Source: a virus. Taken from it: 64,000 bases of DNA. The notes under the pieces are model-generated. The model had not been told where the DNA came from. It did not search any database and worked only from the letters and a program-made list of their open reading frames with translations. Of the stretch, positions 35,889 through 63,547 are shown in pieces. The stretch covers positions 64,001 through 128,000 of the IMG/VR virus record IMGVR_UViG_3300021256_000064; one strand, 5' to 3'. Made by a program: the position numbers and the translations under genes. Each line of letters begins with the position of its first letter. Position 1 is the stretch's first letter.

Positions 35889-35917
35889 TATCTATAAGAC
35901 TAAGAAAGGAGTGTTTT

Positions 35918-37048
35918 ATGAAATAGGCAGGTATAAAAAATGCTCCTCTATCTAAAAATATTGATAGTAAAAGACCTTATGCTAGATTGGATCATACTAT
36001 TACTGATATTAATTAGCGTAATAAAATAGTTCATCAAATTGTAAATACTACACCTCCTTAGCGGTTAACGCCTTATTATTTGGAAGAGTTAACTAGATAT
36101 TTAGTATAGACTCAACAGAGCAAGAAAGAAAAGACAATTTTAACAGATAATAGAATGGTTACCGTTAATAAAAGAGAAACTTCTTATGAAGGGCTTGTTT
36201 TAAAATTAGAGAATGGTGAAGATGGTATTTATAATTTTATGACTGGCGGCGATAAGAATATTTTATTAGTTCCAAAAATATAGATCACTGAAGATGATAT
36301 TGCTACAATACCTGGATTAAAAGAATTAAGAGAATAGATAAAAAAAATAGAGAGTCAACAAAAAGAAGCAACTGGGAAAAAGAAATTTTTATTAACTAAA
36401 CAATTAATATAGATGCGGCAAGATCAATACATATTAAAAAGTTCCTATAAACCGCCAATTACCTCAATGAAATTAACAAAAAATGTAAATCATATTGTTT
36501 TAAATGAAAGAGTAAAAATTGATGAAAAAGGTGACCCAGTTAGTAATTGTTTAATATCATTATTTAATCCTCATCATGTTAGTTGTCTATTGTGTAATTA
36601 TTCTAAAATAAAAGAATAGGCTTGGGGTAATTTTGATGGAGATTGGTGGTTTTTAATGGAGGATTTTGATAATCTTATTGATAAAGCTTTACAAAAAGAT
36701 TATCCTATTTTATATGATGTTGTTAAATTAAAAATTGACGGCTTACAAAATAAAGACATTTCTATATAGCTGAAACAAAAATATGGCGTTACCTATTCTG
36801 TTGAATACCTTTCCGTTGTTTGGCGTAAAAAAATCCCAAAAATAATTTCAGATAGGGCAAAAGAAGATTGGATCGTATGGTATTATACCATAAAAGAAAA
36901 GGGTAAATGGAAAAGATGTTCTAGATGTCATGAAGTAAAATTAGCTCATCCCTATTTTTTCACAAAAAATAAAACCGCAAAAGATGGTTTATATAGTATG
37001 TGTAAATGTTGTAGAAATAAAAAAACAACAAAGGTCAAAAAAGCTTAA
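35918..37048 (+). CDS. late protein with C-terminal Cys/His cluster (possible HNH/Zn-finger); 7 in-frame TAG
   Basis: single frame (mod 3 = 2) open from ATG 35918 to TAA 37046 except TAGs; ORF-track fragment 36413..36619 in same frame. Confidence 0.55.
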
Positions 37049-37091
37049 TTTAATATACTATTTTTTATATAAAAATAGAAAGGAGATTTTT

Positions 37092-38414
37092 ATGGCAAAG
37101 AAATTAGGACAAGAACCAGATAAGAATGGGAAATGTGCATGTTAGAGATGCGGTAAACGGATCGGTCAAATTAATTTTTACACATATAAAGATGGTAGTA
37201 AATGTGAGATTTGTAAAGAATGTTTAACTGCACATATTGATAATTTTGATTTCCATACTTTTGAATGGATTTTAGAAAAATTTGATGTTCCCTATATTCC
37301 TACTGAATGGAATGTATTAAGAGATAGAGCATTTGCTAAAGATCCTTATAAAATGAATGGAATGTCAGTTGTAGGTAAGTATCTTGCGAAAATGAAACTT
37401 AAACAATGGCGGGAATATGGATATGCAGATACTAAAAAAATTCAAAAAGAAATGGATGAAAAAAAGGCTAAAAAAGAATAGGCAGAAAAAGAAGAAAAGT
37501 AGCGATATGAAGCTGAATTGAAAGTTAAATTAAGTTAGGGAAAAATTTCACTTGCTGAATATCAAACTTTAGTTAGCACAGAAACCCAAAATAAAGAATT
37601 ACCTCAATGGGGAAATAATATAACTGGCTAGCATTTGGGTCAAATGTATTAGGCATATGGTCAACCGCAATCTTATGCTGATGCATTAAGCCAAGCTAAA
37701 AATCCATTTCAATAGCAGAACTTTTTATCTTAGAATGAACTGCCAGATGTTGGTTCAGATTTAAGTAAAGATGATAAAATGTATCTTGCGGTTAAGTGGG
37801 GTAGATTGTATAAACCTAGTCAATGGGTTGCTCTTGAACAGTTATATAATGAGTTTATGAGTTCTTTTGATATACAAGGTGCCGCCAGAATTGATACTTT
37901 AAAGAAAATTTGTAAAACTTCTTTAAAAATGGATTAGGCTATTGATTGCGGCGACATAGATTCTTATCAAAAATTATCTCGTGTATATGATTCATTAATG
38001 AAATCCGCAAAATTTACAGAAGCGCAAAATAAAGATAAAGAAGGTGCGGGAATTGATTCTGCTTCTGCTATTGTTGATTTTGTATAGAGTCATAGTGGAG
38101 AAATTCCACGTTATCATTGTGATGAACCTCAGGATATTATTGATCAAATTATTTTAGATTTAAAAGCTTATAATAAAAATTTAATTTATGAAGATAAATC
38201 TTTAGCTCAAGAAATTGAAAAATATCTTCAAGATAAGCGTATCTCTGATGAAATGAAGAAAGATAAAAAAGAAGCAAGAGCAAAAGGATTAGATACCGTT
38301 GAACTTGAAGATGATGATTTTGTAGATTTTAAAAATGTTTTAAATCATATGAAGACACATGATAATGACCTAGATGATACTTTAATTGAAGAATAGTATC
38401 AAAATAGGAGGATA
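37092..38414 (+). CDS. packaging-region protein with N-terminal zinc ribbon (possible small terminase by position); many in-frame TAG
   Basis: GGAG RBS, ATG 37092, TAA 38412; immediately upstream of TerL. Confidence 0.45.
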
Positions 38415-38421
38415 AAACAAG

Positions 38422-40159
38422 TATGAATTTAAAAGAATTACTTTAGTTATCCTCGGGGAGAGATTTTAGAAAACAAGGGCTATCTGAATAGCGATTACTA
38501 CAAGATATAGATGGATTAAGAGATTTAATTGCTTATTTTAGGGAATACCCTGATATATTTGTAGATTTTATAAAAGGAAAAGATAGTACATTTAATTTCT
38601 TATTTTATCAAAGAATATTTTTAAGAATTGTTATGCGGCATAGGTATGTGTACGCGACTTTTCCACGTGCTTATTCGAAGTCTTTTTTGTCAATGATGGC
38701 GTTGATGATAAGATGTATTTTATATCCTAACTCACATTTGTTTGTAACCACGGGCGGTAAGTAGCAAGCAGCCTCGATTACAATCGCAAAGATCTAGTAG
38801 ATATGTAGACTTATTCCTGGATTAAATAATGAAATTAATTGGGATCGTGGAGTTTCTACTAAATCAAAAGACAACGTAAAATATGTATTTAAAAATGGTT
38901 CAACTATTGATATTCTTGCGGCAAGACAATCTTCTAGAGGCCAGCGTCGAACAGGCGGATTAATGGAATAGTGCGTTCTTATTGATGGAGACATTTTAAA
39001 TGAAGTTATTATTCCTACTACCAACGTTGATAGGCGTCTCTCAGATGGCAGCCGCCACAAAGAAGAAAATGTAAATAAAAGTCAAATTTATATTACTACC
39101 GCCGGATGGAAAAATTCATTTGCTTATCATAAACTAATATAGATTTTAATTAATTCAATTATAGATCCTGATTAGTTTATGATTATGGGTGGAACTTATG
39201 AAACGCCTGTTGTTTCAGGACTATTAGATGAAGACTTTGTTTAGCAATTAAGATTACAAGGTACTTTTAATGATTAGTCGTTTAATAGATAGTATAGAAG
39301 TATATGGTCTGGAGATGTAGAAAATGCTTTCTTTTCTTCCGAAAAATTTGATAAATATAGAGTATTATTACAACCAGAATATGAGTACAGCGGGAGATCT
39401 TCTAAAAATGCATATTATGTATTTGGAGTGGACGTTGGGCGTGTAGGATGTACAACTGAAATTTGTGTTTTTAAAGTAACCCCACAAGTACAGGGGTCAG
39501 CTCATAAGACTCTTGTTAATATTTATACATATGATGCAGAACATTTTGAAACTCAATGTATTCATATTAAACATTTATATTATAAATATAAACCTCGTAG
39601 AATTGCGGTGGATGCGAATGGATTAGGTGTTGGATTAATTGATTATTTAATAAAACCGCAAGACACTGAAGATGGATAGTATTTACCTCCTTTTGGAGTT
39701 TTTAATACAGATGAATATCCTGAATATAAAAAATTTGTGACACCAGAGACTTAGAAAGATGTTTTATATTTAATTAAAGCTAATGCACCAATTAATACTT
39801 AGGCTTATAGTTATGCTCAAACTCAAATGTTTAGCGGGAAAATCAGATTTTTAATTGATGAAGGATTAGCAAAAACAAAATTAATGTCTACTAAGCAAGG
39901 TCAAAATATGAACATGGATGAAAGAAATGAATATTTACGACCTTTTATATTAACTTCTATTTTAAAATAGCAAATGTTAAATCTTGTTTAGGAAAATGAA
40001 GGTGTTAATATTATTTTAAAACAAAGTAATAGAAGTGTCAAAAAAGATAAATTTTCTGCTTTTATTTATGGTTTATATTATATTCGTTATGAAGAATAGT
40101 TAAATAAAAAGAAAAGAAAACGTAATATTTCTGACTTTTTATTTTTTACACAAGGTTAA
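38422..40159 (+). CDS. terL: terminase large subunit (Walker A ATFPRAYSKSF; RNaseH-like nuclease motifs FGVDVGRVG, IAVDANGLGVG); N-terminus shows a frame discontinuity
   Basis: body in frame 2 from 38432 to TAA 40157; strong RBS+ATG at 38422 is in frame 1 which hits TGA at 38485; in-frame TAGs throughout. Confidence 0.7.
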
Positions 40160-40221: not shown

Positions 40222-40578
40222 ATGCGAGCGTCTAGAGGAGAAATAAAAATAGAATAGATTTTACAAGCATCTGGATTAGAGTTCGCAGAAGAATACTCTT
40301 TTCCAGATTTAGTAAGTAATACTGGTCGTCCATTAAGATTTGATTTTGCGGTTTTTGATGATTAGCATAATATTGATTTTTTAATTGAATTTCAAGGTAT
40401 TCAACATTATGAAGCTAAAGAAAAATTTGGTGGATATAATGGTTTAAGAAAACAACAATATAATGATATGAAAAAAAGATAGTATTGTCGAGATCATGAT
40501 ATTAATTTAGTGATTATTCCCTATTGGGACTATGGTAGAATTAATTATGATTATATTCTTAATGCGGCAGGGTATTAA
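40222..40578 (+). CDS. small putative nuclease-like protein, 3 in-frame TAG
   Basis: GGAG RBS; frame consistent ATG to TAA. Confidence 0.4.
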
Positions 40579-40640
40579 AGAAGGAGAGGTATCTAAAGTT
40601 GATAAATCGAATGGCATAGATAAAGAAAAAAGGCTTTAAT

Positions 40641-42182
40641 ATGATTGGAACTGAAGATTACCAAATTCCCAATTAGGCTACTGGATATACACCAGTTGAT
40701 TTTGCAAAAATTCGAGTTGGAGTAAAAAATGTATCTGATGTTATTTTAAAACTTGGAGATTTAAGAAGAGTCAATCCGCAACTAGCAGATAAAGGACAAG
40801 TATTAAGAGCTATCCATTATGGTGATCTTAATAAGATGAGAGATATTTCTAATTATTTTTATAAAATTAGTGGTATTTATCAAAGATTATGTCGTTATAT
40901 GGCATATATGTATAGATATGATTGGCTTGTTACCCCTTATTATGCTTAGTCTGTCAAGCCTACAAAGATACTTGATGGTTTTAATAAAGTTTTAACATAC
41001 TTAGATAAATTTGAGGCTAAAAGATTTTTTGGAGACGTTGCTTTAAAAGTTATTAAAAATGGTTGCTATTATGGATATTTAATTGCTAAAAATGGAACTG
41101 TGGTAGTTCAAGAACTACCTCCGAGATATTGTAGATCTAGATATGTAGTTTCTAATGGGCAGCCGCTTGTTTAGTTTAATATGAAATACTTTGATGATAT
41201 GTTTACAGATGCGTAGCAACGTCTTAGAATGTTAAAAGTATTTCCGCCAGAATTTGAAAAAGGATATAAGTTGTATAAACAAGGAAAATTAAAGCCTGAT
41301 TTTCCTGGAGATGATTCTGGATGGTACTTATTGACTGTTGGTTCTGTTATAAAATTTAATTTAAATGGGGAAGATTTCCCGCCTTTTATTGCAGTTATTC
41401 CAGCTATTATTGATTTAGATGCAGCGCAAGATCTCGATCGTAGAAAGATGCAACAACAATTATTAAAAATTATTATTCAGAAAATGCCTATTGATAAAAA
41501 TGGAGATTTAGTGTTTGATGTAGACGAAGCTCAACAACTTCATAATAATGCAGTGCAAATGTTATCAAAAGCTATTGGTATTGATGTTTTAACTACTTTT
41601 GCGGAAGTTGATGTTGCGGATATGGCAGATAATCATACTACAACAACAACAGATGATTTAGAAAAAGTAGAGCGTACTGTTTATAATGAAGCAGGTGTTT
41701 CACAGATGCAATTTAATACTGATGGTAATATTGCTCTTGATAGATCTATTTTAAATGATGAAGCTTCAATGTGGAATTTAATACAGCAATTTGAAACATT
41801 TTTAAATGCTTTATTAACACCTTTCAATACAAGTCCAAAAAAAGTAACTTACAGAGCGCAAATTCTTCCTACTACGATTTACAATTATAAAGATTTAGCT
41901 AAACAATATAAAGAGCATACTCAATTAGGTTATTCTAAAATGTTACCTCAGATTGCTCTTGGGCAATCACAAAGCGCAATTTTAGCAACAGCTTATTTTG
42001 AAAATGATATTCTTGATTTAGTTAATGTCTTTATTCCACCATTAATGTCGAGCACTATGAACGCAGAAGTTCTTAATCGCAATAAGACTACTGGCGAGAC
42101 AAAATAGGGTGCGGGTAGGCCTGAGAAAGAAGATAGTGAGAAATCAACTAAAACAATTCAGAATCGTGAAAGTATGAATTAA
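40641..42182 (+). CDS. portal protein (by position and size, about 513 aa)
   Basis: ATG 40641 in frame with ORF 41229..42107; continues through TAG to TAA 42180. Confidence 0.55.
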
Positions 42183-43637: not shown

Positions 43638-44216
43638 ATGGCAACGATTAAGAGAAAAGGTTATGGACAAGTTGAGCCTAATCACCTTTCTGGTATTGTC
43701 ACTGGTCAGATTTATGCTCAATTACCTGCAAAAGCTAACACTGCGGCAAGTGGCCAGCCAAGTAATGCAATTACTCAACTTGAGCAGGGTCAGTTTGCTA
43801 AATATGACTACGCTGCAGGTGAAGTAAATTTCACTGGTGATGGTGAATTTATGCTTGTTTACAATGAAGAAAAACTTTATGATGAAAGAAAACAACATCA
43901 TAAAGATTTTGTATATAAAGTGGACGATTTTACTGATGGAAAAATTTATCCACGCTTAATTAGAACTTATGTTGGCGATATTATGACAACAAATACTTTT
44001 GAAGCTAACACTTCAGATACGGCAGAAACTACTGGTGTTGAAATTTCTGAGGGTAATTATTTAGCGCCTGGAACTACAGGATTCTTAGAAGTAATTAAGT
44101 CTAGTGGTAGTGCTGCTTCTACTCTTTCTGGAGTAACAGGAATGGCTTGGAAAGTTGTAAAAATTTATACTATGCCCGATGGACAACAGGGTGTTAAAAT
44201 TCAGAGAGTTCAGTAA
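43638..44216 (+). CDS. head-associated protein (192 aa, no TAG)
   Basis: ORF track; between scaffold and capsid genes. Confidence 0.45.
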   Translation: MATIKRKGYGQVEPNHLSGIVTGQIYAQLPAKANTAASGQPSNAITQLEQGQFAKYDYAAGEVNFTGDGEFMLVYNEEKLYDERKQHHKDFVYKVDDFTDGKIYPRLIRTYVGDIMTTNTFEANTSDTAETTGVEISEGNYLAPGTTGFLEVIKSSGSAASTLSGVTGMAWKVVKIYTMPDGQQGVKIQRVQ

Positions 44217-44236: not shown

Positions 44237-45298
44237 ATGGCATTAACAAAAGATCAATTAATTGAATTAGCTAGAGCCAATGCGAAAGCATCATTAAATC
44301 CTTCTACTGCTTTTTCTTTTGGTGGAGAAAAGCTTTCAGCAGAAGCTCTGAATAAAACTTTTATTAAAGAATTAAATGAACTTGGGGCAACTCCTCAAGA
44401 TTTTAGAGAGAATAAAAATCTTATTTATACATTAATGTAGGTAAGTCTTACAGAAGTTTTACCGCAAAAGATTATGCAATCTTATGGACAGTTTGCGGAT
44501 GTTCGTACTTTTGCTCAGGGAACAAAGCCTGTTTACAAAGTTAAAATTAGTGAAGCTTCAAAGAAGCGTGCTAAGCAGTTCGTAACTAGAGTTGGATTAG
44601 CAGGTAGATATGAAGTCTTCAAGCTTGATGGATATTCATTCGAAGTTGCTACAGCTGCATACGGAGGAGCTTCTCGTGTAGAATGGGAAGAACTTCTTGA
44701 TGGCCGCATGACAATGAATGATTACTATAGCCTTGTTCTTGAAGGAATGGATGAACAAGTTTATAAAGAAATCGCGAAAGCTCTTGAAGCTTTAATTAAT
44801 AGTATTCCTGCACTTCAAAAGGTAATTCATACTGGTTTCGACGAAACCAAGATGGATACATTATTAGCACTTGCTGATAGCTATGGCGGAAAGAGTACAA
44901 TTTATTGTACATTTGAATTTGCTTCAAAAATGCTTCCAGCTTCAAGTGCTAATTGGTCAGATGGAATGAAAGAAGAAATCTGGAATAATGGATATTTTGC
45001 TACTTATAAAGGACATAGAGTAATTATTCTTCCGCAGTCTATTGAAGATAATGTAGGTATGACAGATACTAGAATTAATAAAGTTATTAATCCTCAGCTT
45101 GCCTATATCATTCCGACTGGTTCAGAAAAACCTGTAAAAGTTGCTTTTGAAGGTTCTGCACAGGTTAAATCTTTTGATAATCGTGATTGGTCAACAGAAA
45201 TTCAGACTTATCAAAAATTTGGTGTAGCTACTTATTTAGTACATCCAGGTATTTGTATCTATAAGAATGAAGCGTTAAATCCTTATTATGGTGTATAA
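44237..45298 (+). CDS. major capsid protein candidate (about 353 aa, one in-frame TAG)
   Basis: ORFs 44237..44440 and 44474..45298 share a frame and are separated by a single TAG; position after scaffold. Confidence 0.55.
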
Positions 45299-45392
45299 TG
45301 GATAAGGATTAATTATCAATAAAATTACATAGGGGAGAATTGTTTTAATTCTCCCCTATTTTTTGTAAGTAGAGATAAAAGGAGATTTTTAT

Positions 45393-47149: not shown

Positions 47150-48754
47150 ATGGCTGATATTTCGAAGATTACGCTGCCTAGTGGAACTACGTATGACATT
47201 AAAGATGCTACTGCACGTTCTTTAATAGAATAGTTACAAAGTTATACTGATTATTTAGGTGTTTCTGCTACTGCGATTTCAGATGGATCAACCACAAATC
47301 CAATTAAAATTGGCACAGAAGATGTTACTGCAAAAAAAGGTAATATTGTCAATTATAATAGTAAAGAATTTATTTTTAATGGAACTGCTTGGCAAGAGTT
47401 TGGTGATTTAAGTGCTTTAGGCGATCTTGCTTACAAGGATACGGCAAGTGCAACATATAAGCCAGAAGGTACAATAACAGCGCCAACTTTTACTGGTAAG
47501 AGTTCTAATTTAACAATTACAACAGCTGATAATACCAGTGGAAATTATCAGCCAAAAGGTACTGTAAGTAAGCCTACTTTTACTGGTGAAAGCACAACTT
47601 TTACTGGTACATTTACACCAGAAGGCTCAATTTCAGTTACTACAAATGCAACTACAAATAAAACTGCAACTGTTAGTGCTGCAGCTTCTGGTACTACAAC
47701 TTATACTCCTGGTGGAGATATATCTCAAATTAACTTTACAGGTACTTCTTTTAGTTCAACTGGAAAATTTACGCCTACAGGAAGCGTTGCTTTAACTAAT
47801 ACTAATAAAACTGCGGAGGTTAGTCCTATAGAGGGAACAGCTACTTATATTCCTGGTGGACAAATTTCACAACCAACTTTTTCAGGTAATAATTTAACTT
47901 CTGAAGGTACTTTTACACCACATGGAAGTGTAAGTTTTACTAATGAAAATAGGACTACTACAGTTAGTGCTGCCTCTTCCGGTACCGCAACTTATACTCC
48001 TGCGGGGAATGTTAGTACACCAACTATAACCGTAAAAACAGCGGGATCAACAACTACAATTAAAAATCCTACTAGCGTTACTGTAGCAAAGACTGTAGTT
48101 GCAGCTGCTCCTGGGGCGACGGCTCCAAGTAATGCGATAACATATTATAATGTTGCAGATGAAACATTAAGTTTATATCAATTGGGATATACAACTGGAG
48201 CATCAATTACTACAAGTAATGTAACTGTCAAAAATGGAGACGCTACCTACGAATCTTCACAGCCTTCCTTTACTGGTACTGGAGCAAGACTTGTAACTGG
48301 TAATATTTCAGTACCGAAAAGTGCTTCTTTTACTGGCACCGAAGAAGATATAAGCGTTTCAGGAAAACCTTCTGGTACTGTTTCTAAACCAGAATTTACT
48401 GGTACTGGGGTTAGATTGGTTACTGGAGATATTCCTGTACCCACAAGCGCTTCTTTTACTGGTACAGAAGGAAATGTTAGTGTTAGCGGTATTCCAACAG
48501 GAAGTGTTTCTCAACCAGAATTTACTGGTACTGCGGTTAGACTTGTTACTGGAAATATCCCTGTGCCTGATACTTATACTGCGACTTGGACAGGGACTGA
48601 GGGAGATGTTTCTGTGTCTGGACAACCAAAAGGATCTGTTTCACAGCCAACCTTTACAGGAACAAAAACTCAAATTTCTGGTACAACAATCGCAAATGGA
48701 GATGTTTCAGCACCTACATTTACAGGTACTCAAAAAACTATTACAGTTAGCTAA
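47150..48754 (+). CDS. tail fibre protein with about 12 repeats of PTFTG / SVSQPEFTGT modules; conserved N-terminus MADISKITLPSGTTYDIKD
   Basis: same frame as ORF 48182..48754; repeat visible at nucleotide level. Confidence 0.6.
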
Positions 48755-48769: not shown

Positions 48770-49567
48770 ATGGCAGAAATATCTAAAATTACCCTGCCCA
48801 ATGGCAACACTTATGATATAAAAGATACTGTAGCATATGCACATGCCACAGATGCAAATAGGTTAACTACAGCAACATCAAGTGGTTTATATAAAATTGC
48901 CGCGACTGAGTATGGACATGTATCTTCGTTAACAGCAGTTACAAAAGCTGATATTACTGGTTTAGGAATTCCTGGGTCTGATAATGATACAAAAAATACT
49001 GCGGGTTCAACCAATTCATCTAAAAAATTATTTTTAATTGGTGCAGAAACACAAGCAGCTAATCCACAAACTTATTCACAAGATACTGCTTATGTTGGAA
49101 CAGATGGTAAATTATATTCTAATAGTAAAGTAGTATTAACTGGTGGATCTAATGCTTCATCTGCTGTTACTATTATACCGAGTACTACTGATGTATATTC
49201 GATGACTAGTGCGGGTAGTGTAACAGCGGGAACTAAAAATGTTCCAACAAAAATTGATACAAGTAAATTTAGCGGTGGTAGTTTTACAAGAGGAACTTTT
49301 AATCAAGGAACTTTGCCAACCCTAACTTTTGCTATGGATACAGTAGATACTAAAAGATTAAAAATTTCTTTTAATCAAGGTGCTTTACCTACACATGCGG
49401 CGGATAGTTTTACTGCTGCTGCAATTCAAAGTGGTTTTTATACTGCTGGTACAGCTAATACTCCAACTGCAGTTACGTTACCAGGAAGAAGCTCGGCTAT
49501 TAAAGCATGGACTGGATATACTTCAGCGACGGCGGCCGCGCAAACTTTCACTGGAAGTTCGAATTAA
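48770..49567 (+). CDS. tail fibre paralog (N-terminus MAEISKITLPNGNTYDIKD), Ser/Thr/Gly-rich
   Basis: ORF track 265 aa, no TAG. Confidence 0.6.
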   Translation: MAEISKITLPNGNTYDIKDTVAYAHATDANRLTTATSSGLYKIAATEYGHVSSLTAVTKADITGLGIPGSDNDTKNTAGSTNSSKKLFLIGAETQAANPQTYSQDTAYVGTDGKLYSNSKVVLTGGSNASSAVTIIPSTTDVYSMTSAGSVTAGTKNVPTKIDTSKFSGGSFTRGTFNQGTLPTLTFAMDTVDTKRLKISFNQGALPTHAADSFTAAAIQSGFYTAGTANTPTAVTLPGRSSAIKAWTGYTSATAAAQTFTGSSN

Positions 49568-51405: not shown

Positions 51406-54400
51406 ATGGCAACTTATATTACAGATAAAATTGAATTTAATAATAATATATATAAATTACAAGATAGTGATGCCCTACCTCTTGCGGGAGGTAACGTAAC
51501 TGGTCCAGTGAATTTCGGTGATACGGTTACAATGGAATAGGCATCAGTTGGAGATCTTATTATTACTGGTAATGCAAGTTCCACTAATAACCTTCAAGTA
51601 AATACAATTAATGGTGTCGCAGTTGGTAATTCACCGAAATTTACTGATACTGGATGGATTCCTTTTGGTCAAGTAGATAGTACTTCAACAAGCACTGCTT
51701 TTACAGCTACGATAGATGGAATTACTGAATTAAAACCTGGAACTTGTGTATTATTAAAGAATGGAGTTGTTACTAGCGATTCTGGTTTTACTATAAATAT
51801 TAATAATTTAGGAGCAAAAAGAGTTTATAATAATCTGACTGCTGGCACAGCAGACACGACAATCTTTAATATACACTATACAATGTTATTTATTTATGAT
51901 CCAACTGTAACGATTGAGGATAGCGTTGGATGTTGGAATTGTTATAGAGGATACGATTCTAACACTAATACCATTGGGTATCAATTAAGAACAAATAATA
52001 CAGTATTAAAAACTTATGATAAGAGCAGATATTATAGAATATTTTTTACATCTGCAGATGGGACGCATTGGGTTCCAGCAAATACGGGAACAGATAACAG
52101 CTCTACATCCAAAAAAACAGTGAATCAAAGACCTATTAATCCCTTTGGTCGAATTGTTTATACATCAGCTTCAACTAGTTATGCAGCAGGAGCTGATATT
52201 GCAGCAACAACTATTTGGGATCAATATAATATGAATTTAGGATATTCATTTAATACTACTGGAGCAACGTTAACATTAACTTCAAAAAACCCTGTATATA
52301 TTAAATGTGCGCCACAATCAGACGGTTCTGTTGTCATAGATTCAACGACTCCTTTTGTGCAAACACTTCCTACTTCTGAAGATGGTAAAATTTATATATT
52401 TTTAGGAATTGCAACTTCAGCAACTAACGTCGAATTAATTATTAATCATCCTGTGTATATGTATAAAAATGGAAAAATTATACAATATACTGGTTCGGAG
52501 ACAGATGATTTATCTTAGATTGGCGGTAGAAATCTTTTAATTGGAACTGAGAAGAAACTTTTTTAGGGAGTTTCTAACACTCTTGAGATTCCTTATTAGC
52601 TGTCTTTATACGCACAAAGTAAGAATGTTTTTTATATACAAGATGAAACTTATACTATTTCTTTTGATTATACTGTTTCAAATGCTGGTGGTACAGTAGC
52701 TATAAAAGTTAATAATTTAGATGGAGTGCCTTTAGATATAGGAAATAGATATGATAGTTCTTTAAGTCAAAGCGTTACTGCGGTTAAAACAACATATAGA
52801 CGGACTGTGAAAATATCTCAAGCGCAAGCTAATAATGCTGGTAATGCAAGCTTTAAAATAGTTTTTAGCGGACTTACTTCAAATAGCACTGTTACAGTGT
52901 AGAATGTAAAACTTGAATATGGAAACATAGTAACTGATTATACACCTTCTCCTGAAGAGCTTGGATGGGAACCTCAAGTTATTGCACCTAGTGGAGAAAA
53001 AATTTAGTATCAAGGTGAAGAAGTTAATTTAAATATTTTAAATAAACCAAATGTCTATCTTGAATAGTTTAAACGTGCAGGTGGGACTTCAGGAAATAGT
53101 AATAGAAATGCATGGCAAGGTATGGACGTTTATGGAAAATATTTATTTAGGGCTAAAGTCGGAGGGGTAGTATATGTTTATGATTTAACTGAAAATACTC
53201 AAGATTTAACTATACTAGGTTCTTTTAGATTAGGTAGTTATAGAGCTAGTGCAGGAACAATGCATGGTATTGAATTTTCTACTTCTAATCATGCTGGAGT
53301 TTTAAGTTTTACTGATTATACAATTCCTGGTGATGAATTTCCTTTGTTACTTGTATCTGATGGAAGTAGCGTAGACACTGGTGATAATACGCAAGTAGAT
53401 GCTAAAGGATATTGTTATATATAGAGGATCCAAAGAACAAATGATACATCAAATCCTTTTACAAGTACTTTACTTACTATTATTGAATTACAATTTGTGA
53501 TGGCAAGTCCACAAAACCCTTGGGATTCTCAACACTTTTTCTATCCTTGGTGCCAATGGCATTATTATGATAATCATATATATAGTTTTGGACATTATAG
53601 GAGAGGGGCAGGTGGTACTACAAAAAAATTTAATGAACATATTTTGACTAGATGGTCACCTTCCATTGCGTCTTTACTTCCGCAAGGAAATGAAAGTACA
53701 CCTAACTATCAACTTTTTACACAAAATCAAATGGATAATCTATGGAGAATAGAATATACTTAGCAATATATGCAAGGTTGTAGATTTTATAATGATAAAA
53801 TTATTGCTACATTTGGTCATCCAGGTAAAGGTTTTCCAAATTATGTAATAATTTTTTCTATATCATCTAGTACTGTACTTAGTATTATAGACTTAACCAC
53901 AACATTAATATCTGCAAAAACTATGGAAGGATGTTTTGTTTATAATAATAAAATTTATTTAGGTTTTACAGGAAGTAATGATGATGATAGTAATCTTTAT
54001 TCTTTAACTCTAGTTAAAAATGAAAATAATGAAGTTGCTAGTCCGCTTGCACCTGCTACAACTAGTTCAAATGGTTTAATGACTGCTCAAGATAAAATAG
54101 CATTAAATACAGTATATTCTAATTATTTATTAAATCCATAGCTTCAACCTCCAACCGGATTGCCAGTAGATCCTTCTCTATCTATATTTCGTTCAATGGC
54201 AGTTTTTGGAGATAGCTATGCTAGTGGTAGCTTTTATTGGGCTGATAATAGTAATAGTGGTAAATCTAATGAATATGAAAGATCCTGGGGCAAACAAATA
54301 GGAAGACATTATGGTATAAATATAATGAACTATTCAGCTGGAGGATGGACTGCAAAAGATTTTATGTATGCTCCAACACGACAATAGGATCCAACTGGCT

Positions 54401-55062
54401 ATACATTATCAGATAACCATGGATGGATTAAATTTAATAGAGATTTAACTTCTGCTACTGATTCTGAAATTAGACATAGAGATTTATATATTTTAGCTTT
54501 TGGTATTAATGATTTTAGAATTATAAATACGGCAAATAGTGATTATAAATGGACAAATTATTATAATATTGATGATGATGATATTTCTTATTTTAATAAT
54601 ACCACTCAGTCAAATAATTCTCAATATTATTTAAACAGTCCAGATACTTTTTTTGGAGTACATAATAAAATCATTAGACATATTTTAAAATATTCTGAAC
54701 ATTCAGTAATTCTTTTATTATCATATTTAAGACCTGTTCCAATTGGAACCTATGATGTTGATAATAATTATAGTAGTGATGATCCAAGGTATTTTAAAGC
54801 TAAAAACGATGTAAATGGTAACTTGCAACAAATTGCTTCTCATTTTTCATCAAATAATGTTTTATATATAGATGTTAATGCTGATCCATTTTTTGCATCA
54901 GATTTTTATAAATCTGATGCATATAAAAATTATCATCCTGCTGCAATTGGATATGCTGGAATGGCTACAGCGATAGAAAGATTAATTAGTAAAGCAATGA
55001 GATAGCATCCAAATAAATTTTTATCAGTTGGTAGAGTAACGAATCCTACTAATTGGCTCTAA
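51406..55062 (+). CDS. giant tail fibre/tailspike (about 1218 aa) with C-terminal SGNH/GDSL hydrolase domain
   Basis: six ORF-track fragments (51883, 53122, 53497, 53770, 54160, 54823) all mod 3 = 1 with ATG 51406, separated only by TAG; N-terminus LQDSDALPLAGGNVTGPV; FGDSYASGSF, GGWTA, FGINDF, NYHPAAIGYAGMA. Confidence 0.7.
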
Positions 55063-55138: not shown

Positions 55139-58018
55139 ATGGCAACTCAAATTGTAAACAAAATAAATTATAATGGAAAAGTATATAAGCTACAAGATAG
55201 TGATGCTTTACCTCTTGCTGGCGGTAATGTAACTGGTCCAGTAGAATTTAATGATTCAGTTACAATGTAGTAGGCATTAGTTGGAGATCTTGTTATTACT
55301 GGTAATGCGAGTTCTACTAATAATCTTCAAGTAAATACAATTAATGGTGTTGCGGTAGGGGCTAATCCGCGATTTACTGATACTACTTATAATCCAGTTA
55401 CAACTTCTGCAAATGGATTAATGTTAAAAGAAGATAAGCAATTTATTGATACATTATAGATTGGCGGAAGAAATTTATTAAATGAAACTGAAAGAAAAGT
55501 TTTTGAGAATGTTTCTAGCCCATTTGAAGTTTCTTATCCACTTTCTTTATATGCTCAAGATAAAAATGCTTTTCGTGTACAAGATGAAATTTATACTATT
55601 TCTTTTGATTATATAGTTTCAAATATTGGCGGAGTTGTGACTGTAAAGATTAATGATTTAGATGAAGTTTTATTGGATAAAGGAAATAAATATGAAAATT
55701 CAATAAATCAAAATATTACCGCAATTAAAATGACTTATAAACGAACTTTTAAAATAACTTAGGAACAAGCTAATAGTATAAATACAAGTTTTAAAATAGT
55801 TTTTAATGACTTAGTTTCAAATAATGTTATTATAATAGAAAATGTAAAACTTGAATATGGAAATATGGCAACAGACTACACTCCGTCTCCTGAGGAACTT
55901 GGATGGGAACCTTAGCTTGTTGCTCCTGAGGGAGACAAAGTTCAGTATTAGGGTGAAGAAGTTTCTTTTAATATTTCAAATAAGCCAAATGTTTATATTC
56001 AAGAATTTAAACGGGCAGGTGGCAATAGCGGAGCTAGTGATGAAGACGCATGGCAAGGTATGGACACCTATGGAAAATATCTATTTAGATCAAAAAAGAA
56101 TGGTACAGTATATGTTTATGATTTAACTGAAGATTCACAAAATTTATCAATTATTGATAGCTTTCAACTAGGAAGTTACAGAACCACTGGAAAAACAGTG
56201 GATGCATGGGGTCTAACTTTTAATGAACATAATCATGCTGGTGTTCTGTGTTTTACAGATAAAAAGTTTAATAACAATGATGAATTTCCTTTATTGCTTG
56301 TATCTGATGGATGCGGATCAGGAACTAAAGGAATAGATGGTCAAGGATTTTGTTATATATAGAGAATCCAAAGAACTGATAATAATTTTACCAGTACTAC
56401 CGTTGGAGTTATTTAGTTACGTTGGACAAAAGGTAGTGAGGCAGATTACGCTGATGCAACAAAAGGTCTTACAGAATATTTTTTCTTCCCTTGGTGTCAA
56501 TGGCATTATTATAATGGATATATTTATAGTTTTGGGCACAAAAGAAGAGGTACTGGTACTGTAACAAAAAAATTTAATGAACATATACTTACCCGATGGC
56601 ATCCAGACATTTTAACTTTAATTAACAAAAATGCCACAAATTCCAATCAAGCTAAAATAACTAGATTTTATTAGGGAACTTATACAACAAATGGGGCGTC
56701 TGTATCAATAATAGATAATCAATGGAAAATAGAATATGCTTGGGATTACTTAGATGGTTGCAGATTTTATGATGATAAAATTATTGCTACATATGGACAT
56801 GGGACATGGCTTCTTCCTAATAAAATTGTAATTTTTTCTTTAGCTTCTACAACAGCTATAGCTACTATTGATTTATCTAAAAATCCAGCTTCATCAACAA
56901 AATAGATGGAAGGATGTATTATTTATAATAATAAAATATATTTAGGATATAATGCAGATAGTATGCTTTATTTATTATCCTTTGTAAAAAATAAAACTGG
57001 TGAAATTGCAAATCCAATCTCTATTGCAACTCCTACTACAGATGGATTAATGTCTATTGCAGATAAAGTAATGTTAGATACAATGAGTGCAAGCTATGTA
57101 TTAAATCCAAATCTTTAGCCACCAGTTTTAGCAGTTGATCCTGCTATATCAGCTTTTCGTACTATTGGTATTCTTGGAGATAGCTATTCTTCTGGGTCAT
57201 TTTATTTTCCTGTTCCAGTGTCAACTGAACATCCCAATGGTTATTCTAATCAATTAGGTTCAAATGAATATACTTCAGATAGATATACTACTTCATGGGG
57301 AAAACAATTAGGTAGAATGACTGGAAGAGATAATGGAAAAAATGTAATGATCTATGCTAAAGGCGGATGGACAGCTAAAAAATGGTATTAGGATACAACA
57401 GGAAGTGGTCGTAGCTGGGGAAAGTTTGATCGAGATATGCAACCAAAAAATGGTACTGAAGGTGGAAAAGCAAAAGATTTATATATTATAGCTTTTGGTA
57501 TTAATGATTACAGAGAAATAGTAGAAAAAAGTGGACAAAATGTTGATTTAACATATGATTGGGGTGACCCTACTGATATTACAAACTATAGTAATATTAC
57601 AGATAGCACTAGTAATTTTTATTATTTAAAAGCTCCAAATACTTTTTTTGGTGTTTATAATAAAATTATTAGAAATATAAAAAGATGGACACCAGATTCT
57701 ATTATTATTATATTATCATATTTAAAATATGAATAGGGATTTGAAACAGCAAGAGATTTTACTAATCAAAAACTTATAAAGATTGCAAATACTTTTAATA
57801 ATGCAGGTGAATCTGTAGTTTATATTGATGTTAATGGTGATCCGTTTTTTAATTCAGATTTTTATAAGAAAAAAGCTTATATAAACCATCATCCTACTGT
57901 CATTGGGCATGCGGGTATGGCGACTGCAATAGCAAGACTCATTAGTAAAGCTATGCGCGAATAGCCAGAGAAATTTCTTACACTTGGTAAGATTGATGAT
58001 CCTGATTATATCACTTAA
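55139..58018 (+). CDS. paralogous giant tail protein (about 959 aa) with C-terminal SGNH/GDSL hydrolase domain
   Basis: fragments 56060, 56906, 57437 mod 3 = 2 with ATG 55139; LGDSYSSGSF, GGWTAK, FGINDY, NHHPTVIGHAGMA; N-terminus near-identical to 51406 gene. Confidence 0.7.
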
Positions 58019-58044: not shown

Positions 58045-58375
58045 TATGATTTTAAAATATGATATTGAAATAAATAATAAAATAATTTCTGAACGATTAC
58101 AAAATCTTATAAATCAAACTTATAAACTTTTACCAAATCGAGAATAGGGAATAGATTGGAAAAAACCTTTATAGACAATTTTAGAATAGTTAATTGGAAT
58201 GTATAGATTAATGAATGATTATTCAGAAATCTTTTTTCCTTTGTTAAATAAAATGGAAGGGCTTTATTCATTAACTAAAGATGATGACTTTTCATGTTAT
58301 CGAAGAACAATTTTTGAATGTCTAGGTTTAATGAATGAGTTGCGGTAGAACATATGTCATCATTAGAATTGTTAA
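58045..58375 (+). CDS. small tail-region protein with apparent +1 frame discontinuity after codon 15
   Basis: RBS+ATG 58045 frame 1 stops at TGA 58090; frame 2 open 58073..58375 (TAA). Confidence 0.35.
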
Positions 58376-59364: not shown

Positions 59365-59973
59365 ATGAAGAAAGATTTAGCTTTAAGACCTGTTGACTTT
59401 ACTTCATCTTTTTTATCATGCTAGAAAGATTTAGAAGAGATTTTGAAAAGATTGTTCGTAACAAGTCAACCATATAGTGATGAGTTGAAAAGATTGTTAG
59501 TAATCAACACAAAAGATTGTTTAGATGATAAAAATAGCGTTGTTTATAAAAACGCTATTAAAGACATGAGTCTTGCAAAACTGAGGGAAAAGGGATATAT
59601 CAAATTTGAACCAAAAATAAAAATGACAGAACATGAATAGGTAAAAAGTTATTTATTAATTAGTTTTGATAATTTTAGACCTAATATGCAAAATCCTCAG
59701 TTTAGAGATTGTAATGTACATATTGATGTGCTTTGTCACACAGATTGTTGGGATTTAGGTAATTTTAGAATCCGACCTTTAAAGATTTGCGGATATATTG
59801 ATGGAATTTTAAATAATGCTCGTTTATCTGGCATTGGTACATTCCAATTTGCGGGATGTAATGAATTAGTTTTAGATGAAACTTTATCTGGTTATACATT
59901 AACATACGCCGCAATTCATGGCACAGATGATGTATTACCAAGTTCACATGGGTGGATTCCAGTAAATGCTTGA
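59365..59973 (+). CDS. hypothetical tail-region protein, stops at TGA-TGA
   Basis: same frame as ORF 59686..59973; shows TGA is a stop in this genome. Confidence 0.5.
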
Positions 59974-59979: not shown

Positions 59980-60005
59980 ACTTTTGTTATCGGGGAATGA
60001 TATAC
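59980..60005 (+). terminator. hairpin GGGGAATG-ATATAC-CATTCCCC after 59973 stop
   Basis: seen directly. Confidence 0.5.
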
Positions 60006-60151
60006 CATTCCCCTAGGCACAGTTAATAATCCATCAACCGCGATTGAAAGAAATAGCTTATATCACTGAATAGCGCTTTTGGCCTGGATGTGAACTATTA
60101 AAATTTAATAAAGAAAATTTAACAACTTAGGACAAAGTTGATTTATCAAAT

Positions 60152-60745: not shown

Positions 60746-60758
60746 GGAGGAAATCCAA

Positions 60759-61766
60759 ATGAAATTTGGTGTACGTGAAATTGCTAACGTAGTATTTAAG
60801 GCTAAGAATCAACAAAGAATTGGTAGCCAAATTTTCGCAAAAGGACAACCAGTTTTTTATCTTGATTCTGCAAAAACTTCTTCTATGGAAGGCGCGGCTA
60901 CTACAGTATATGCAACAGGTGGTCGTGGTAATACTCGTTTAATTGCTTGGGAAGGTGAAAAAACTTTAACATTTACTGTTGAAGATGCTCTTCTTTCACC
61001 GGTAAGTTTTGCTATGCTTTCTGGTGCTGGTATTATAAAAGGTGCGGCAGATTCTGAAAAAACAATTCATTTCCATCAAACTACTAATGCAGTAATTGAA
61101 ACAGCTCAAGGTGGAGGTCTTGAAATTGATTTAACAGAAGCTTTAGAATCTACAGAAAAAATTTGTCCGACAGCTCCTATTTATATTATGAAACTTGATG
61201 CTTATGGAGATTTAACTGGAGAAGTTCTTACAGGATGGACGGTTGATAGTGCTGGTAAGAAATTAACTCATAGTAAAGTTAGTGGATTAGAAGGCGCTAT
61301 TATGGTTGACTATTATGTATTAAAGAAAGAAGGAACTGTTTCCGAACTTCAAATTGATGCAGAACACTTTGGTGGATACTATTATGTAGAAGCTGATACA
61401 TTATTTAGACGTCAATCAGATGGTAAAGATTTACCTGCAAATCTTACATTCCCTAATGTTAAGATTCAGTCTAATTTTACATTCTCTATGGCTTCAACTG
61501 GTGATCCAAGTACATTTACTTTTACTATGGATGCGTTCCCTGGATATACATATTTTAATAAAACAAATAAAGTCTTATGTGCTATCCAGGTTGTTGATGA
61601 TGCTACAGAAGCTAAATATGAAGCTAAGCCATTATTCCCACATCCAACGGGATTCAATATTGAGGAATCTATTCCTAGAACTGAAGCTGATGGTCAAGTT
61701 ACTAGATATGGTGACTCTGTTGATGGCCCAGATAATGAAGATGGTGTAGAAGGAGATGCGCCGTAA
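60759..61766 (+). CDS. major structural protein candidate (tail tube/sheath-like), no TAG
   Basis: AAGGAGG RBS, MKFGVREIANVVFKAKN...; 335 aa continuous. Confidence 0.5.
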   Translation: MKFGVREIANVVFKAKNQQRIGSQIFAKGQPVFYLDSAKTSSMEGAATTVYATGGRGNTRLIAWEGEKTLTFTVEDALLSPVSFAMLSGAGIIKGAADSEKTIHFHQTTNAVIETAQGGGLEIDLTEALESTEKICPTAPIYIMKLDAYGDLTGEVLTGWTVDSAGKKLTHSKVSGLEGAIMVDYYVLKKEGTVSELQIDAEHFGGYYYVEADTLFRRQSDGKDLPANLTFPNVKIQSNFTFSMASTGDPSTFTFTMDAFPGYTYFNKTNKVLCAIQVVDDATEAKYEAKPLFPHPTGFNIEESIPRTEADGQVTRYGDSVDGPDNEDGVEGDAP

Positions 61767-61848
61767 GGCTAACTTTGAAACATTAAAAATTTTATAGGGA
61801 GAGTATAATTTTACTCTCCCTATTTTTTGTTAAAATAGGTGAGGTCAT

Positions 61849-62922
61849 ATGGATGAAATTACAAAAATTGGTGTCCAATATGTTGCAAAAGATATAAAAG
61901 AGCAGGAATTAAAAAATGCGGCTCATTTAGTAGACGCTGCTGTAACTTTTATAAGAGATGTAGAAATTATTATAAATAAATATGAAATTTTAGGAAAATA
62001 GATTAGTTTATTTGGACAACCTTTGAAAAATTTGGGAAAAGCTATGCAACGAAATAACGAAGATTTACAAGCCATAATCTCTAGACAATATACATTTGAA
62101 TAGTAGTTAAATAGATTTTTAGGTAGGTCAATAAATTTTGCTTGGGTTGATTCTAACGGAAAAATTTTGTATGCAGATGAAGAAACAGCAAGAAAAATAT
62201 ATGAAACTGCTACTTTATCTACAGATAAAGATAAAACTTATGTAGGAAAATTATCTTCATCTTAGGTAAAAAAGAAAGCACAAGAAGTTCCTAATTTTGT
62301 TCTAAAATTATACGCAGATGCAGTTCAAGAAAGGACTCAAAAACATCAGAGACTTTTTCAAGAAATGATAAAACGGTTAAATGAAAATAAAAATAAAGAA
62401 AATGTTTGGGCAAAAGAACATTATTCAACAGTATATTGGAGAGGGCATTCACCTTTTGGAGATTCAAATTTTCATCATCCAAAATATTAGTGGTCTTACA
62501 AATATAATCAAGGACATATTTCATAGGGATATGTAAATTTTATTTTTAATAAAATAATAAACTATGATTCTGGAGAAAGCAGTATTGGTAATTTTATGAT
62601 GAATGAAATTACAAAAGATACTACCCCAGGAATTGTAAAAGGAGACGTAGTTTTAGGATAGGGAAATGGAATAAGTAATAAAATTCAAATTGCAGTAAAA
62701 TCTCAAGATACTTTTAACACTGCTTCTATTGGAACTTATTTAAGTGTTGCCTATCAAGTCGTAGCTTTTAATAATAATTTAGAAAATTTAACAACATAGG
62801 AAGTAGAAAAAATATTAAATAATTTAAAACGATATAGTGTTAAAGTCACTGAAGCAGGTAGAAAAGAAGCTAAAAAAATTATTGAAGATATGGCTAAAGA
62901 TACTGGCGGTAAAATAACATGA
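61849..62922 (+). CDS. hypothetical late protein, multiple in-frame TAG, TGA stop
   Basis: frame consistent ATG 61849 to TGA 62920. Confidence 0.4.
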
Positions 62923-62924
62923 AC

Positions 62925-62953
62925 TTGACAAAATAAAAATTTTATATTATAAT
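62925..62953 (+). promoter_or_regulatory. internal late promoter
   Basis: TTGACA-AAATAAAAATTTTATAT-TATAAT. Confidence 0.45.
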
Positions 62954-62982
62954 ATAAAAAAGAGTTAAAAGGAGAACTGGAT

Positions 62983-63534
62983 ATGAAAGTATCATATGCA
63001 AATATGAAATTAAAAGTTAATACACAAGTGAAAACTTTTGATTTTTGCGGACAAAAGATTTAGGTTTTACAATACCTTCCCGCAAGAGATAAATATGATT
63101 TATTAATGATCACGTTACAAAAAGCTTAGGAAAATGGTATTTATAATGAATTTAAATTAAATCTTTATTTTGAATTAAATTTAGTATATTTATATACAAA
63201 TATTTCATTTACTGAAAAACAAAGAGAAGATGAATTAAAATTATATGATACGTTAAAAAGTAATGGATTCTTTGAACAATTTTTCCAAGCTATAAATGAA
63301 GAAGAATATAATGAACTTTTTGCACAACTTAATGCGATTAGATATTCCTTAACACAGAATCATAAGAGCGTTGCGGCAATTGTTCAATCACTTATTAATG
63401 ATTTACCTGCTAATGCAGAAGCTGCCGCTAAGATTGTAGAAAGTTTTGATATGAATAAATATAAACAAGTAATTGATTTTGCTACTTATGCAAATGGTGG
63501 TAGAAATATTAAAACTAATTTACCAATGGAATAA
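62983..63534 (+). CDS. hypothetical late protein, in-frame TAGs
   Basis: AAGGAG RBS; ATG 62983 to TAA 63532. Confidence 0.4.
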
Positions 63535-63547
63535 TGAATAAAAATAA

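Follow-up and report, generated by a model that had tools for sequence, protein, structure and literature searches.

The phage DNA analysed here, a 64-kb stretch with 33% G+C (positions 64,001 to 128,000 of the IMG/VR record IMGVR_UViG_3300021256_000064; hereafter the window), almost certainly uses the amber codon TAG as a sense codon in its late structural operon. Comparison with related sequences makes it highly likely that TAG means glutamate (Glu) rather than glutamine (Gln), and the window probably represents a phage in which amber has been reassigned from stop to Glu. The window covers about half of its genome of roughly 125-140 kb; the phage is SPbeta-like and tailed, comes from the gut or rumen and probably infects an anaerobic host of the Bacillota type.

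With TAG read as sense, the plus-strand length covered by open reading frames (ORFs) of at least 100 amino acids (aa) grows from 24.6 to 43.9 kb and the longest ORF from 506 to 1,244 aa. Between 36 and 64 kb on this strand, stop-to-stop ORFs of 120 aa or more cover a fraction of 0.09-0.61 of the 4-kb bins under the standard code and 0.92-1.00 of every bin once TAG is sense; a control with TGA as sense yields almost no gain. The late operon (35918-63534, plus strand) resolves into 23 abutting genes with 8,932 codons, most of them preceded by a ribosome-binding site of the AGGAG/GGAGG type. These genes contain 135 TAG triplets in frame and not a single TAA or TGA, and in their two other reading frames each stop triplet occurs 192-559 times, except for TGA in one of them (87). 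TAA ends 20 of the 23 genes and TGA the remaining three (37092-38426, 59365-59973 and 61849-62922). In codon alignments with relatives, TAA of the window faces TAA in 84% of cases, and both TAA and TGA remain stops. TAG accounts for 1.5% of the late-gene codons and for 22% of all Glu-type codons of the operon (TAG 135, GAA 399, GAG 71). The features of the operon are as follows.

35918-37048, plus strand: sigma-factor-like protein that opens the operon, nine TAGs starting at codon 3 (phrog_5767)
38423-40159, plus strand: large terminase (TerL) of the SPbeta YonF type, 578 aa, 17 TAGs (PHROG family phrog_2)
40611-42182, plus strand: portal protein, six TAGs including TAG188 (phrog_2739)
44237-45298, plus strand: capsid-like protein, one TAG (44438) (phrog_4088)
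45329-45359: strong terminator after the capsid-like gene
49581-51335, plus strand: gene with a Laminin_G_3 domain (Pfam)
51406-55062, plus strand: tail-fibre-like protein, 1,218 aa, 12 TAGs, with a C-terminal GDSL/SGNH hydrolase domain (PF13472, residues 933-1184)
55139-58018, plus strand: paralogue of the tail-fibre-like protein, 14 TAGs
60759-61766, plus strand: tail tube protein, no TAG (PF27173, YomU_Tube)

An earlier note, made from the sequence of the window without database searches, had regarded TAG, and only TAG, as a sense codon of the late structural operon and had named coding density as a check; both the claim and the check hold, as do the single TAG of the capsid-like gene and the termination of 59365-59973 and 61849-62922 at TGA. 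The gene at 51406-55062, its clearest example, is indeed one frame of 1,218 aa ending in an SGNH domain, but its 12 TAGs divide it into 13 fragments instead of the six that were counted. The dUTPase, which the note had cited in its account of 35900-63540, is not part of this operon; it lies on the minus strand at the right edge of the window (63581-64000), outside that interval. TAG is found among the last codons of two late genes (51330-51335, AAA TAG TAA; 58361-58375, TAG AAT TGT TAA), where it may represent a former stop that is now read through to the nearby TAA.

To which amino acid TAG corresponds can be read from relatives. A protein search with TerL returned thousands of them; at the 17 TAG positions, 111 full-length close relatives have hardly any residue other than Q or E. 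Code 15 is what such databases apply to amber-recoded contigs, so that a Q at such a position may itself be a translated TAG; we therefore fetched the DNA of relatives (79 related IMG/VR loci) and compared codons. In 20 relatives whose TerL genes align in register, 16 of the 17 TAG sites show TAG or GAA/GAG only, with an occasional GAT; CAA is confined to the variable N-terminal site 8. Over 18 late genes (2,775 aligned codon pairs), TAG of the window is paired with GAA (44.0%), TAG (19.6%), GAG (12.2%), GAT (6.2%), CAA (4.7%), AAA (2.8%) and CAG (1.1%), and the reciprocal comparison of the relatives' TAG with window codons gave the same pattern. This profile mirrors that of genuine GAG, and CAA and CAG pair with TAG in only ~1% of cases. 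In evolution, TAG is thus interchangeable with GAA and GAG.

As a control, the same codon-pair method was applied to phAss-1, a 136-kb gut phage whose authors assigned TAG to Gln (PMC10607447), and 11 relatives from IMG/VR; a megablast search for relatives in the annotated phage collection had retrieved only phAss-1 itself. Here, TAG is paired with TAG (48%), CAA (25.8%), CAG (8.9%) and GAA (1.8%), and in the TerL alignment the TAGs of phAss-1 face invariant Q. Since phAss-1 returns Gln, the method can tell Gln from Glu, so that two related phage groups would appear to use TAG with different meanings.

An outgroup test gave the same answer. The recoded TerL subclade shares at least 86% identity with the window and carries 1-17 TAGs per TerL gene; sister clades, with 61-77% TerL identity, have 0-1 TAG in TerL and a standard-code coding density of 0.8-0.99, and TAG serves as the stop of 22 of their 197 long ORFs. 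We aligned 12 window proteins with 32 standard-code loci by tblastn and considered the 54 TAG sites at which five or more sequences aligned. The majority of sequences carry E at 37 of these sites, D at six, and Q and K at two each. The majority-E rate of 69% equals that at true Glu sites of the same proteins; at true Gln sites, the majority residue is Q in 51% and E in 9%. With each site entering once, log-likelihoods from empirical substitution profiles place E ahead of D by 48.6 nats and ahead of Q by 66.8 nats. Glu is invariant at TerL sites 23, 114, 126, 183, 290 and 460, at portal site 188 (25 of 25 standard-code relatives) and at site 68 of the capsid-like protein (the TAG at 44438; 19 of 19). 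Glu also occupies TerL positions 126, 183 and 290 in the cultured standard-code phages Enterococcus H1, Geobacillus E3 and Alicyclobacillus KKP_3916. The anaerobic ribonucleotide reductase NrdD, encoded on contig L139, which matches the last 11 kb of the window, contains four TAGs. In three solved NrdDs these are aligned with E, E/E, R/D/D and D/D/N; Q stands opposite none of them.

One of the invariant sites coincides with a catalytic residue. Pfam searches with TerL, portal, capsid and other proteins found no match, their identities being derived from PHROGs, and PDB sequence searches with TerL, as a single sequence and as a profile, gave no match either; the catalytic residues were therefore mapped by hhalign of the TerL family alignment against T4 gp17. 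The Walker A motif SRQLGKT of gp17 corresponds to PRAYSKS, and its Walker B motif MIYID-E256 to GGLME followed by TAG183. TAG183 (38969-38971) is thus aligned with E256, the catalytic carboxylate of gp17 (PMC5737356), and register and spacing of the motifs agree with the motif table of PMC6379665. Exchange of the equivalent residue in lambda terminase, E179Q, is lethal and leaves 0.2-0.7% of the ATPase activity (PMC6379665); on this ground, Gln at TAG183 would be expected to abolish packaging.

Further observations concern the terminase gene itself. Its N-terminal part (residues 17-233) and its C-terminal part (350-575) are matched separately by phrog_15503 and phrog_24618, PHROG families of 'unknown function' that cover no more of TerL yet score better than the terminase family; both have the look of families assembled from the pieces that code 11 makes of recoded TerL genes. 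In five relatives (L026, L028, L045, L059 and L066), the TerL match extends over ~2.5 kb where 1.7 kb would be usual, which suggests an intron, an intein or the insertion of a homing endonuclease. Enterococcus phage EF1 harbours an HNH endonuclease within the homologous TerL gene, and in the window a homing-endonuclease-like gene with three TAGs (40222-40578) lies directly downstream of TerL.

The window also encodes a tRNA with the anticodon CUA, situated in a tRNA array on the minus strand.

309-5134, minus (early) strand: tRNA array for Leu, Thr, Met, Sup-CUA, Glu-UUC, Asp, Leu, Asn, Ile and Arg
1-60: further truncated tRNA beside the array
1180-1253, minus strand: suppressor tRNA with anticodon CUA (Sup-CUA; ARAGORN; full-length Rfam tRNA match, 62.8 bits)
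1964-2036, minus strand: phage tRNA-Glu(UUC), D-loop AAGCGGUUUAA, 4-nucleotide (nt) variable loop
4050-4901, minus strand: sigma-70 family factor with regions 1.2, 2, 3 and 4, no TAG, inside the array
5967-6761, minus strand: conserved gene of unknown function beside the array, five TAGs, conserved in 13 related loci

Sup-CUA lies 3 nt upstream of tRNA-Met(CAU). Its acceptor shows C1-G72 and G2·U71, with A73 as discriminator; the D-stem has 3 bp, the D-loop 11 nt (...GGCUUAA) and the variable loop 5 nt. The tRNA has no U1-A72 pair and is conserved in relatives, whose syntenic arrays were located with the sigma-factor gene as an anchor (a scan for tRNA-Met had given one locus only). Plain sequence identity is uninformative here, and identity elements and anticodon-masked isotype profiles were used for this reason. 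The presence of A73, a G·U pair near the top of the acceptor, the 3-bp D-stem and the enlarged D-loop after G18G19, together with the absence of U1-A72, gives Sup-CUA a body of the tRNA-Glu type. Profiles built from 182 tRNAs of these phages, which in a leave-one-out test assigned 151 of the 182 correctly (Glu 9/11, Gln 7/8), score the window suppressor best as Glu (41.4 bits), followed by Met (36.1 bits), and Gln is outside the top four.

In the sister lineage L090-L093, the acceptor of Sup-CUA reads GGCCCCA and its D-arm GUC-AAGCGGUUUAA-GAC, and the variable loop is 4 nt long; D-loop and variable loop are those of the window's tRNA-Glu(UUC), from which the window suppressor differs by its 5-nt variable loop. 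The body of this sister suppressor resembles what we take to be the textbook Firmicute tRNA-Glu, as in B. subtilis. In the same loci, the suppressor adjoins a tRNA-Glu(CUC) whose C1-G72, G2·U71 and A73 are exactly those of Sup-CUA in the window. By comparison, the tRNA-Gln genes of these phages and the suppressor of phAss-1 have a weak first pair (U1-A72 or A1-U72), G73 and shorter D-loops.

On the basis of these features, we propose that the suppressor is a derivative of tRNA-Glu(CUC), in which a change of C36 to A would have turned CUC, which reads GAG, into CUA, which reads UAG. The glutamyl-tRNA synthetase (GluRS) of the host would charge it with Glu. Bacterial GatCAB needs a U1-A72 pair and discriminates against tRNA-Glu by its supernumerary D-loop base (PMC2811023); lacking the former and displaying an enlarged D-loop of the tRNA-Glu type, the suppressor would escape amidation, and Glu would be inserted. 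A phAss-1-type suppressor, with its Gln-like determinants, would deliver Gln. We advance both the origin from tRNA-Glu(CUC) and the charging by GluRS with evasion of GatCAB with moderate confidence. The codon counts fit a GAG-reading ancestor: GAG makes up 30% of the Glu codons in early genes and 12% in late genes, where TAG accounts for 22%.

The tRNA arrays of relatives hold further genes of this kind. Besides a CUA suppressor, L080 (2898-2972) and L097 (14099-14173), both from IMGVR_UViG_3300021399_000007, carry a tRNA-like gene with the anticodon UUA and a Glu-like D-arm, GUC-AAAAGGUUAA-GAC. It could be a tRNA-Glu(UUC) with the same C-to-A change at position 36, predicted to read UAA and UAG; TAA is still the apparent main stop in this close relative. 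In the more distant relatives L104 and L105 (17284-17358), whose sigma factor is 42% identical, the tRNA(CUA) is tRNA-Gln-like, with a UGGGG... acceptor, G73 and an encoded CCA. These may be TAG-to-Gln lineages, in which case both meanings would recur within the phage group. At the end of the tRNA array of another recoded relative (L082, 7283-7560; L100, IMGVR_UViG_3300021400_000126), ARAGORN predicts a transfer-messenger RNA (tag ADNYTYQMAA*), which is of interest in a phage that manipulates termination.

The alternatives to a Glu-encoding TAG differ in what they ask of the data. That the triplets are real stops of a decayed or mis-assembled prophage, or are read through by programme at a few sites, is a formal possibility only and can practically be dismissed: 135 TAGs stand against zero in-frame TAA or TGA over 27 kb, the TAG-bearing frames are conserved across dozens of independent metagenomes with varying TAG positions, and a dedicated suppressor tRNA is encoded. 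Scarcely more credible is Asp or a non-canonical residue such as pyrrolysine. Asp is the second commonest residue at TAG sites (11%), but its share equals that at true Glu sites and its likelihood falls 48.6 nats short of Glu. The label 'Pyl' given to the suppressor by ARAGORN is its default for any CUA tRNA; the gene folds into a canonical cloverleaf (62.8 bits) and not the atypical shape of tRNA-Pyl, the TAG columns contain Glu, and no large ORFs such as pylS or pylBCD were seen within the window.

Gln, which crAss-like, Lak and phAss-1 phages insert (code 15) and which would call for a suppressor of the tRNA-Gln type, was the amino acid favoured by the earlier note. It is the only amber reassignment so far reported in phages, public protein predictions of the clade carry Q at TAG sites, a handful of TAG sites face Q in relatives, and the related phAss-1 truly uses Gln. 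We nevertheless judge it very improbable, since all comparative tests give Glu: GAA/GAG make up 56% of the TAG partners and CAA/CAG 5.8%, the opposite of what phAss-1 returns by the same method; Glu is preferred by 66.8 nats; Gln at the catalytic carboxylate of TerL would inactivate packaging (PMC6379665); and the window suppressor lacks the U1-A72 and G73 seen in the phage's own tRNA-Gln and in the phAss-1 suppressor. The alignment of TerL and portal homologues at TAG positions, which the note had suggested as a check, likewise yields Glu and not Gln. Its clue from the TAG of the dUTPase decides nothing, that position being variable among solved dUTPases; it is E, Q or N in different dUTPases. 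A leaky or ambiguous code, in which TAG would be read partly as Glu and partly as Gln, or would partly terminate through release factor 1 (RF1), so that a protein mixture or a throttle on expression resulted, is unlikely too, if less so. The presumably most abundant virion proteins contain 0-1 TAG and low-copy ones many, as would be expected if decoding were costly or inefficient; no function that neutralises RF1 was noted in the window, and partial amidation of the Glu-tRNA is possible. Against this, the 17 TAGs of the essential TerL, including the catalytic residue, need efficient insertion of Glu with high fidelity, and TAG sites share the conservation profile of true Glu sites.

Several points weigh against TAG as Glu or against the route proposed for it. 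The hhalign match to T4 gp17 is weak (E = 0.044), and the motif assignment rests on register and spacing. Three TAG sites align with Gln, namely residue 283 of 37092-38426, residue 101 of ORF 5967 and residue 8 of TerL, at the frequency expected from E/Q substitution. Sequence comparisons report the residue selected at TAG sites, which is to be distinguished from the one chemically inserted; a minor share of Gln or of termination may accompany Glu. The identity of the tRNA is likewise deduced from sequence features: the isotype profiles separate Glu from the next isotype by only ~5 bits, for two lineage variants another isotype fits as well as Glu or better, and the whole-sequence identity of the suppressor, 0.65-0.76 to many isotypes, cannot assign its origin. 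The charging route would depend on whether the host has a glutaminyl-tRNA synthetase (GlnRS) or uses GatCAB. Among the larger left-arm ORFs and within the window, no GluRS, release factor or RF1 antagonist was found that would account for how competition by RF1 is handled.

Amber recoding with a phage-encoded tRNA(CUA) has been reported or validated as Gln in crAss-like, Lak, Garnet/Topaz and phAss-1 phages (PMC9523058; PMC10607447). The crAss-like, Lak and Garnet/Topaz phages (Borges et al., 10.1101/2021.08.26.457843; Peters et al. 2022, PMC9523058) share with the window phage TAG as a sense codon of late and structural genes, early genes in the standard code, a phage tRNA(CUA), fragmentation under code 11 and a presumed standard-code host; they use Gln, whereas the window phage would use Glu, with a suppressor body of the tRNA-Glu type. 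The TGA-to-Trp phages Agate, Jade and Sapphire, with their 'code-change' operons (Borges et al.), also combine recoded lytic or late genes with a suppressor tRNA; they differ in stop codon and amino acid and sometimes carry genes for tryptophanyl-tRNA synthetase (TrpRS) or RF1, but no aminoacyl-tRNA synthetase or release factor was found in the window. According to Borges et al., phages show only TAG-to-Gln and TGA-to-Trp changes, a pattern explained by the susceptibility of GlnRS and TrpRS; this explanation leaves a TAG-to-Glu case uncovered.

Of the described amber-recoded phages, phAss-1 of the proposed Phassvirus (OQ749652; NCBI 'Caudoviricetes code 15 clade') has a homologous YonF-type TerL with 44% identity to that of the window. 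Both phages possess a large tRNA array on the early strand, a suppressor tRNA(CUA), and TAG in virion genes and a few genes of DNA metabolism including the dUTPase; no dedicated aminoacyl-tRNA synthetase was found in the window or is reported for phAss-1. In contrast to the window phage, phAss-1 uses TAG as Gln and its suppressor has U1-A72 and G73. The ~80%+ nucleotide identity, synteny and TAG-to-Gln code of Phassvirus do not extend to the window, which has only a 149-nt blastn match to phAss-1. In phAss-1 (L084), same-frame 'hypothetical proteins' at 3434-9961 and 16270-21927, annotated as fragments in GenBank, fuse with TAG as sense to ORFs of 2,175 and 1,885 aa that hold 28 and 25 TAGs. 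The SPbeta-like siphophages of Bacillota, Enterococcus H1/EF1 and Geobacillus virus E3 (TerL 43-45% identical to the window), resemble the window phage in YonF terminase, the virion proteins YomU, YomV, YomW and YomO and a size of 120-140 kb, but use the standard code.

UAG is read as Glu in ciliates, by the peritrich code 30 (UAA and UAG both Glu) and by Oligohymenophorea sp. PL0344, in which UAA is Lys (PMC10553269, PMC11687900). There, as proposed for the window phage, a mutated suppressor of the tRNA-Glu type decodes UAG. The ciliate codes are eukaryotic and nuclear, apply genome-wide and involve an altered eRF1, and code 30 reassigns TAA as well; the window phage, by contrast, is viral, retains TAA and TGA as stops and presumably operates in a standard-code cell. 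Full-text literature searches for TAG/UAG-to-glutamate recoding returned ciliate nuclear codes only, and none for phages or bacteria. None of the NCBI tables compared (11, 15 and 30) has TAG as Glu with TAA and TGA as stops: the comparisons speak against the Gln of code 15, and of code 30 the window shares TAG as Glu but not TAA as Glu, TAA ending late genes and never occurring in frame. We infer that the phage retains the known architecture of amber recoding but gives the codon a new meaning and has its tRNA charged by another route.

The distribution of TAG follows the arms of the genome.

6820-35772, minus strand: left arm of many small, mostly minus-strand standard-code genes, with a short plus-strand block at ~13.8-15.1 kb
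35859-35887, plus strand: promoter TTGACA, 17 nt, TGnTATAAT (extended -10), a 12/12 sigma-70/sigmaA match found by pattern only, directly upstream of the TAG-rich sigma-like gene
63581-64000, minus strand: dUTPase, N-terminus cut by the window end, one TAG at 63752-63754 (PF00692)

In 22 confident early genes of the left arm (3,500 codons; stops TAA 19, TGA 3), TAG occurs neither as sense codon nor as stop, the absence of sense TAG being partly circular as this set was defined under the standard code. Independent of the set, calling with TAG as sense lengthens no left-arm ORFs other than 5967-6770 and those at ~29.5-32 kb. TAG-bearing genes thus exist outside the late operon as well, such as 5967-6761 on the minus strand. 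In the block for nucleotide metabolism and replication to the right of the window, TAG is sparse (NrdD 4 in 775 codons, dUTPase 1, DNA polymerase (Pol) III alpha 0 in 979). Within the operon, it is absent from the tube protein, 43638-44216 and 48770-49567 and occurs once each in the capsid-like protein and 47150-48754; these TAG-avoiding virion proteins are presumably the most abundant ones. Recoding is hence biased towards late and lytic genes, with early genes readable in the host code, the temporal classes being assigned by gene content and strand. Codon usage and composition change as well: Gln codons flip from CAA 22 and CAG 54 in the early region (4050-35772, minus strand) to CAA 261 and CAG 50 in the late one (35918-63534, plus strand), and G+C is 35-39% in much of the left arm and ~30% in the late operon.

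A translational gating model has been proposed for recoded phages (Borges et al., 10.1101/2021.08.26.457843). Applied here, early genes would be compatible with the host code, and late genes would have to await the build-up of the suppressor tRNA before they can be translated. TAG would in this way time translation, starting with the TAG-laden sigma-like factor behind a consensus sigmaA promoter. As for the sigmaA-consensus promoters on which the earlier note had remarked, a few strong sites are present, but promoter-like matches at 35-45.5 kb are not in excess (55 versus 55.3 in shuffled sequence). Nor is recoding in a phage with such promoters, which the note had called an interesting instance, the remarkable part: amber- and opal-recoded phages of Firmicutes have already been described (10.1101/2021.08.26.457843; PMC10607447). 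What is unusual is the meaning of the codon.

Pfam annotation of identical contigs reveals the SPbeta families YomW, YomV, YomU (tube) and YomO. The dUTPase is the first gene of a minus-strand block for nucleotide metabolism and replication that continues past the window. The last 11 kb of the window are 100% identical to L139 (ena:ERZ28612970, SHIW14-1_SAMN02144230-S004_METAG-scaffold_240, 124,598 bp), on which this block encodes NrdG, a protein of the formate/nitrite transporter family, NrdD, a dGTPase-like protein and the Pol III alpha subunit. The anaerobic ribonucleotide reductase on L139 points to a strictly anaerobic host. A standard-code host is likely, because sister phages use the standard code and the TerL relatives belong to phages of Bacillota.

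Two repeat regions were observed. A 126-nt tandem repeat (48269-48564; 2.3 copies, 78% identity) lies in the Thr/Gly/Ser-rich structural gene 47150-48754 and encodes FTGT...VSG...P.GTVS.P.FTGT units. Direct repeats of 23-24 nt, CTTTAACGCGCTGAAGTGGCAATG-like and accompanied by TTAATGTG units, are clustered at 32484-32908 and adjoin a 3-kb stretch with an AT skew of -0.3 to -0.4 and hardly any ORFs (29500-32500); the cluster could be an origin with iterons or a regulatory region. When the tRNA region and the stretch at 27.5-36 kb, which is poor in ORFs, were searched against Rfam at permissive E-values, only tRNAs were retrieved and no HDV-like or theta ribozyme. Recoding of TGA or TAA in the ORF-poor left arm was considered and rejected: the gain with TGA as sense is small, that with TAA corresponds to chance in AT-rich DNA, and small standard-code ORFs tile the region.

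A natural code variant with TAG as Glu and TAA and TGA as stops would run counter to the generalization that phages recode to Gln and Trp only; if true, it would be a natural prokaryotic stop-to-Glu code, of which no report was found in the literature searched. Amber-aware gene callers translate TAG as Q, and standard code 15 translations of this lineage would then be wrong. Public predictions for an abundant clade appear to hold systematic E-to-Q errors, amounting to ~1.5% of late-protein residues; Q stands at the catalytic glutamate of TerL in 29 of the 111 full-length relatives in the protein database. Such errors bear on structure prediction, family building and proteomic searches. A natural Glu-inserting tRNA(CUA) in Gram-positive hosts may also be of use in genetic-code engineering, and two natural tRNA(CUA) genes of opposite meaning in related phages offer a testable pair.

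More tentatively, we suggest that, among large SPbeta-like phages whose hosts are anaerobic Bacillota, amber may switch between Gln and Glu in the course of evolution, by way of a shared non-discriminating host GluRS. Amidation by GatCAB would be decided by U1-A72, G73 and a short D-loop on the one hand, and by C1/G1-G72/C72, A73 and an enlarged D-loop on the other; a single C36A change in a phage tRNA-Glu(CUC) would suffice for the suppressor, with GAG codons being converted to TAG. As a corollary, the TAG-laden sigma-like factor would be a tRNA-gated timer of late transcription. If true, such a switch would contradict the notion that amber recoding is channelled to Gln by GlnRS. The amino acid assigned to a stop codon appears to depend on the host charging and transamidation pathway that the phage tRNA enters.

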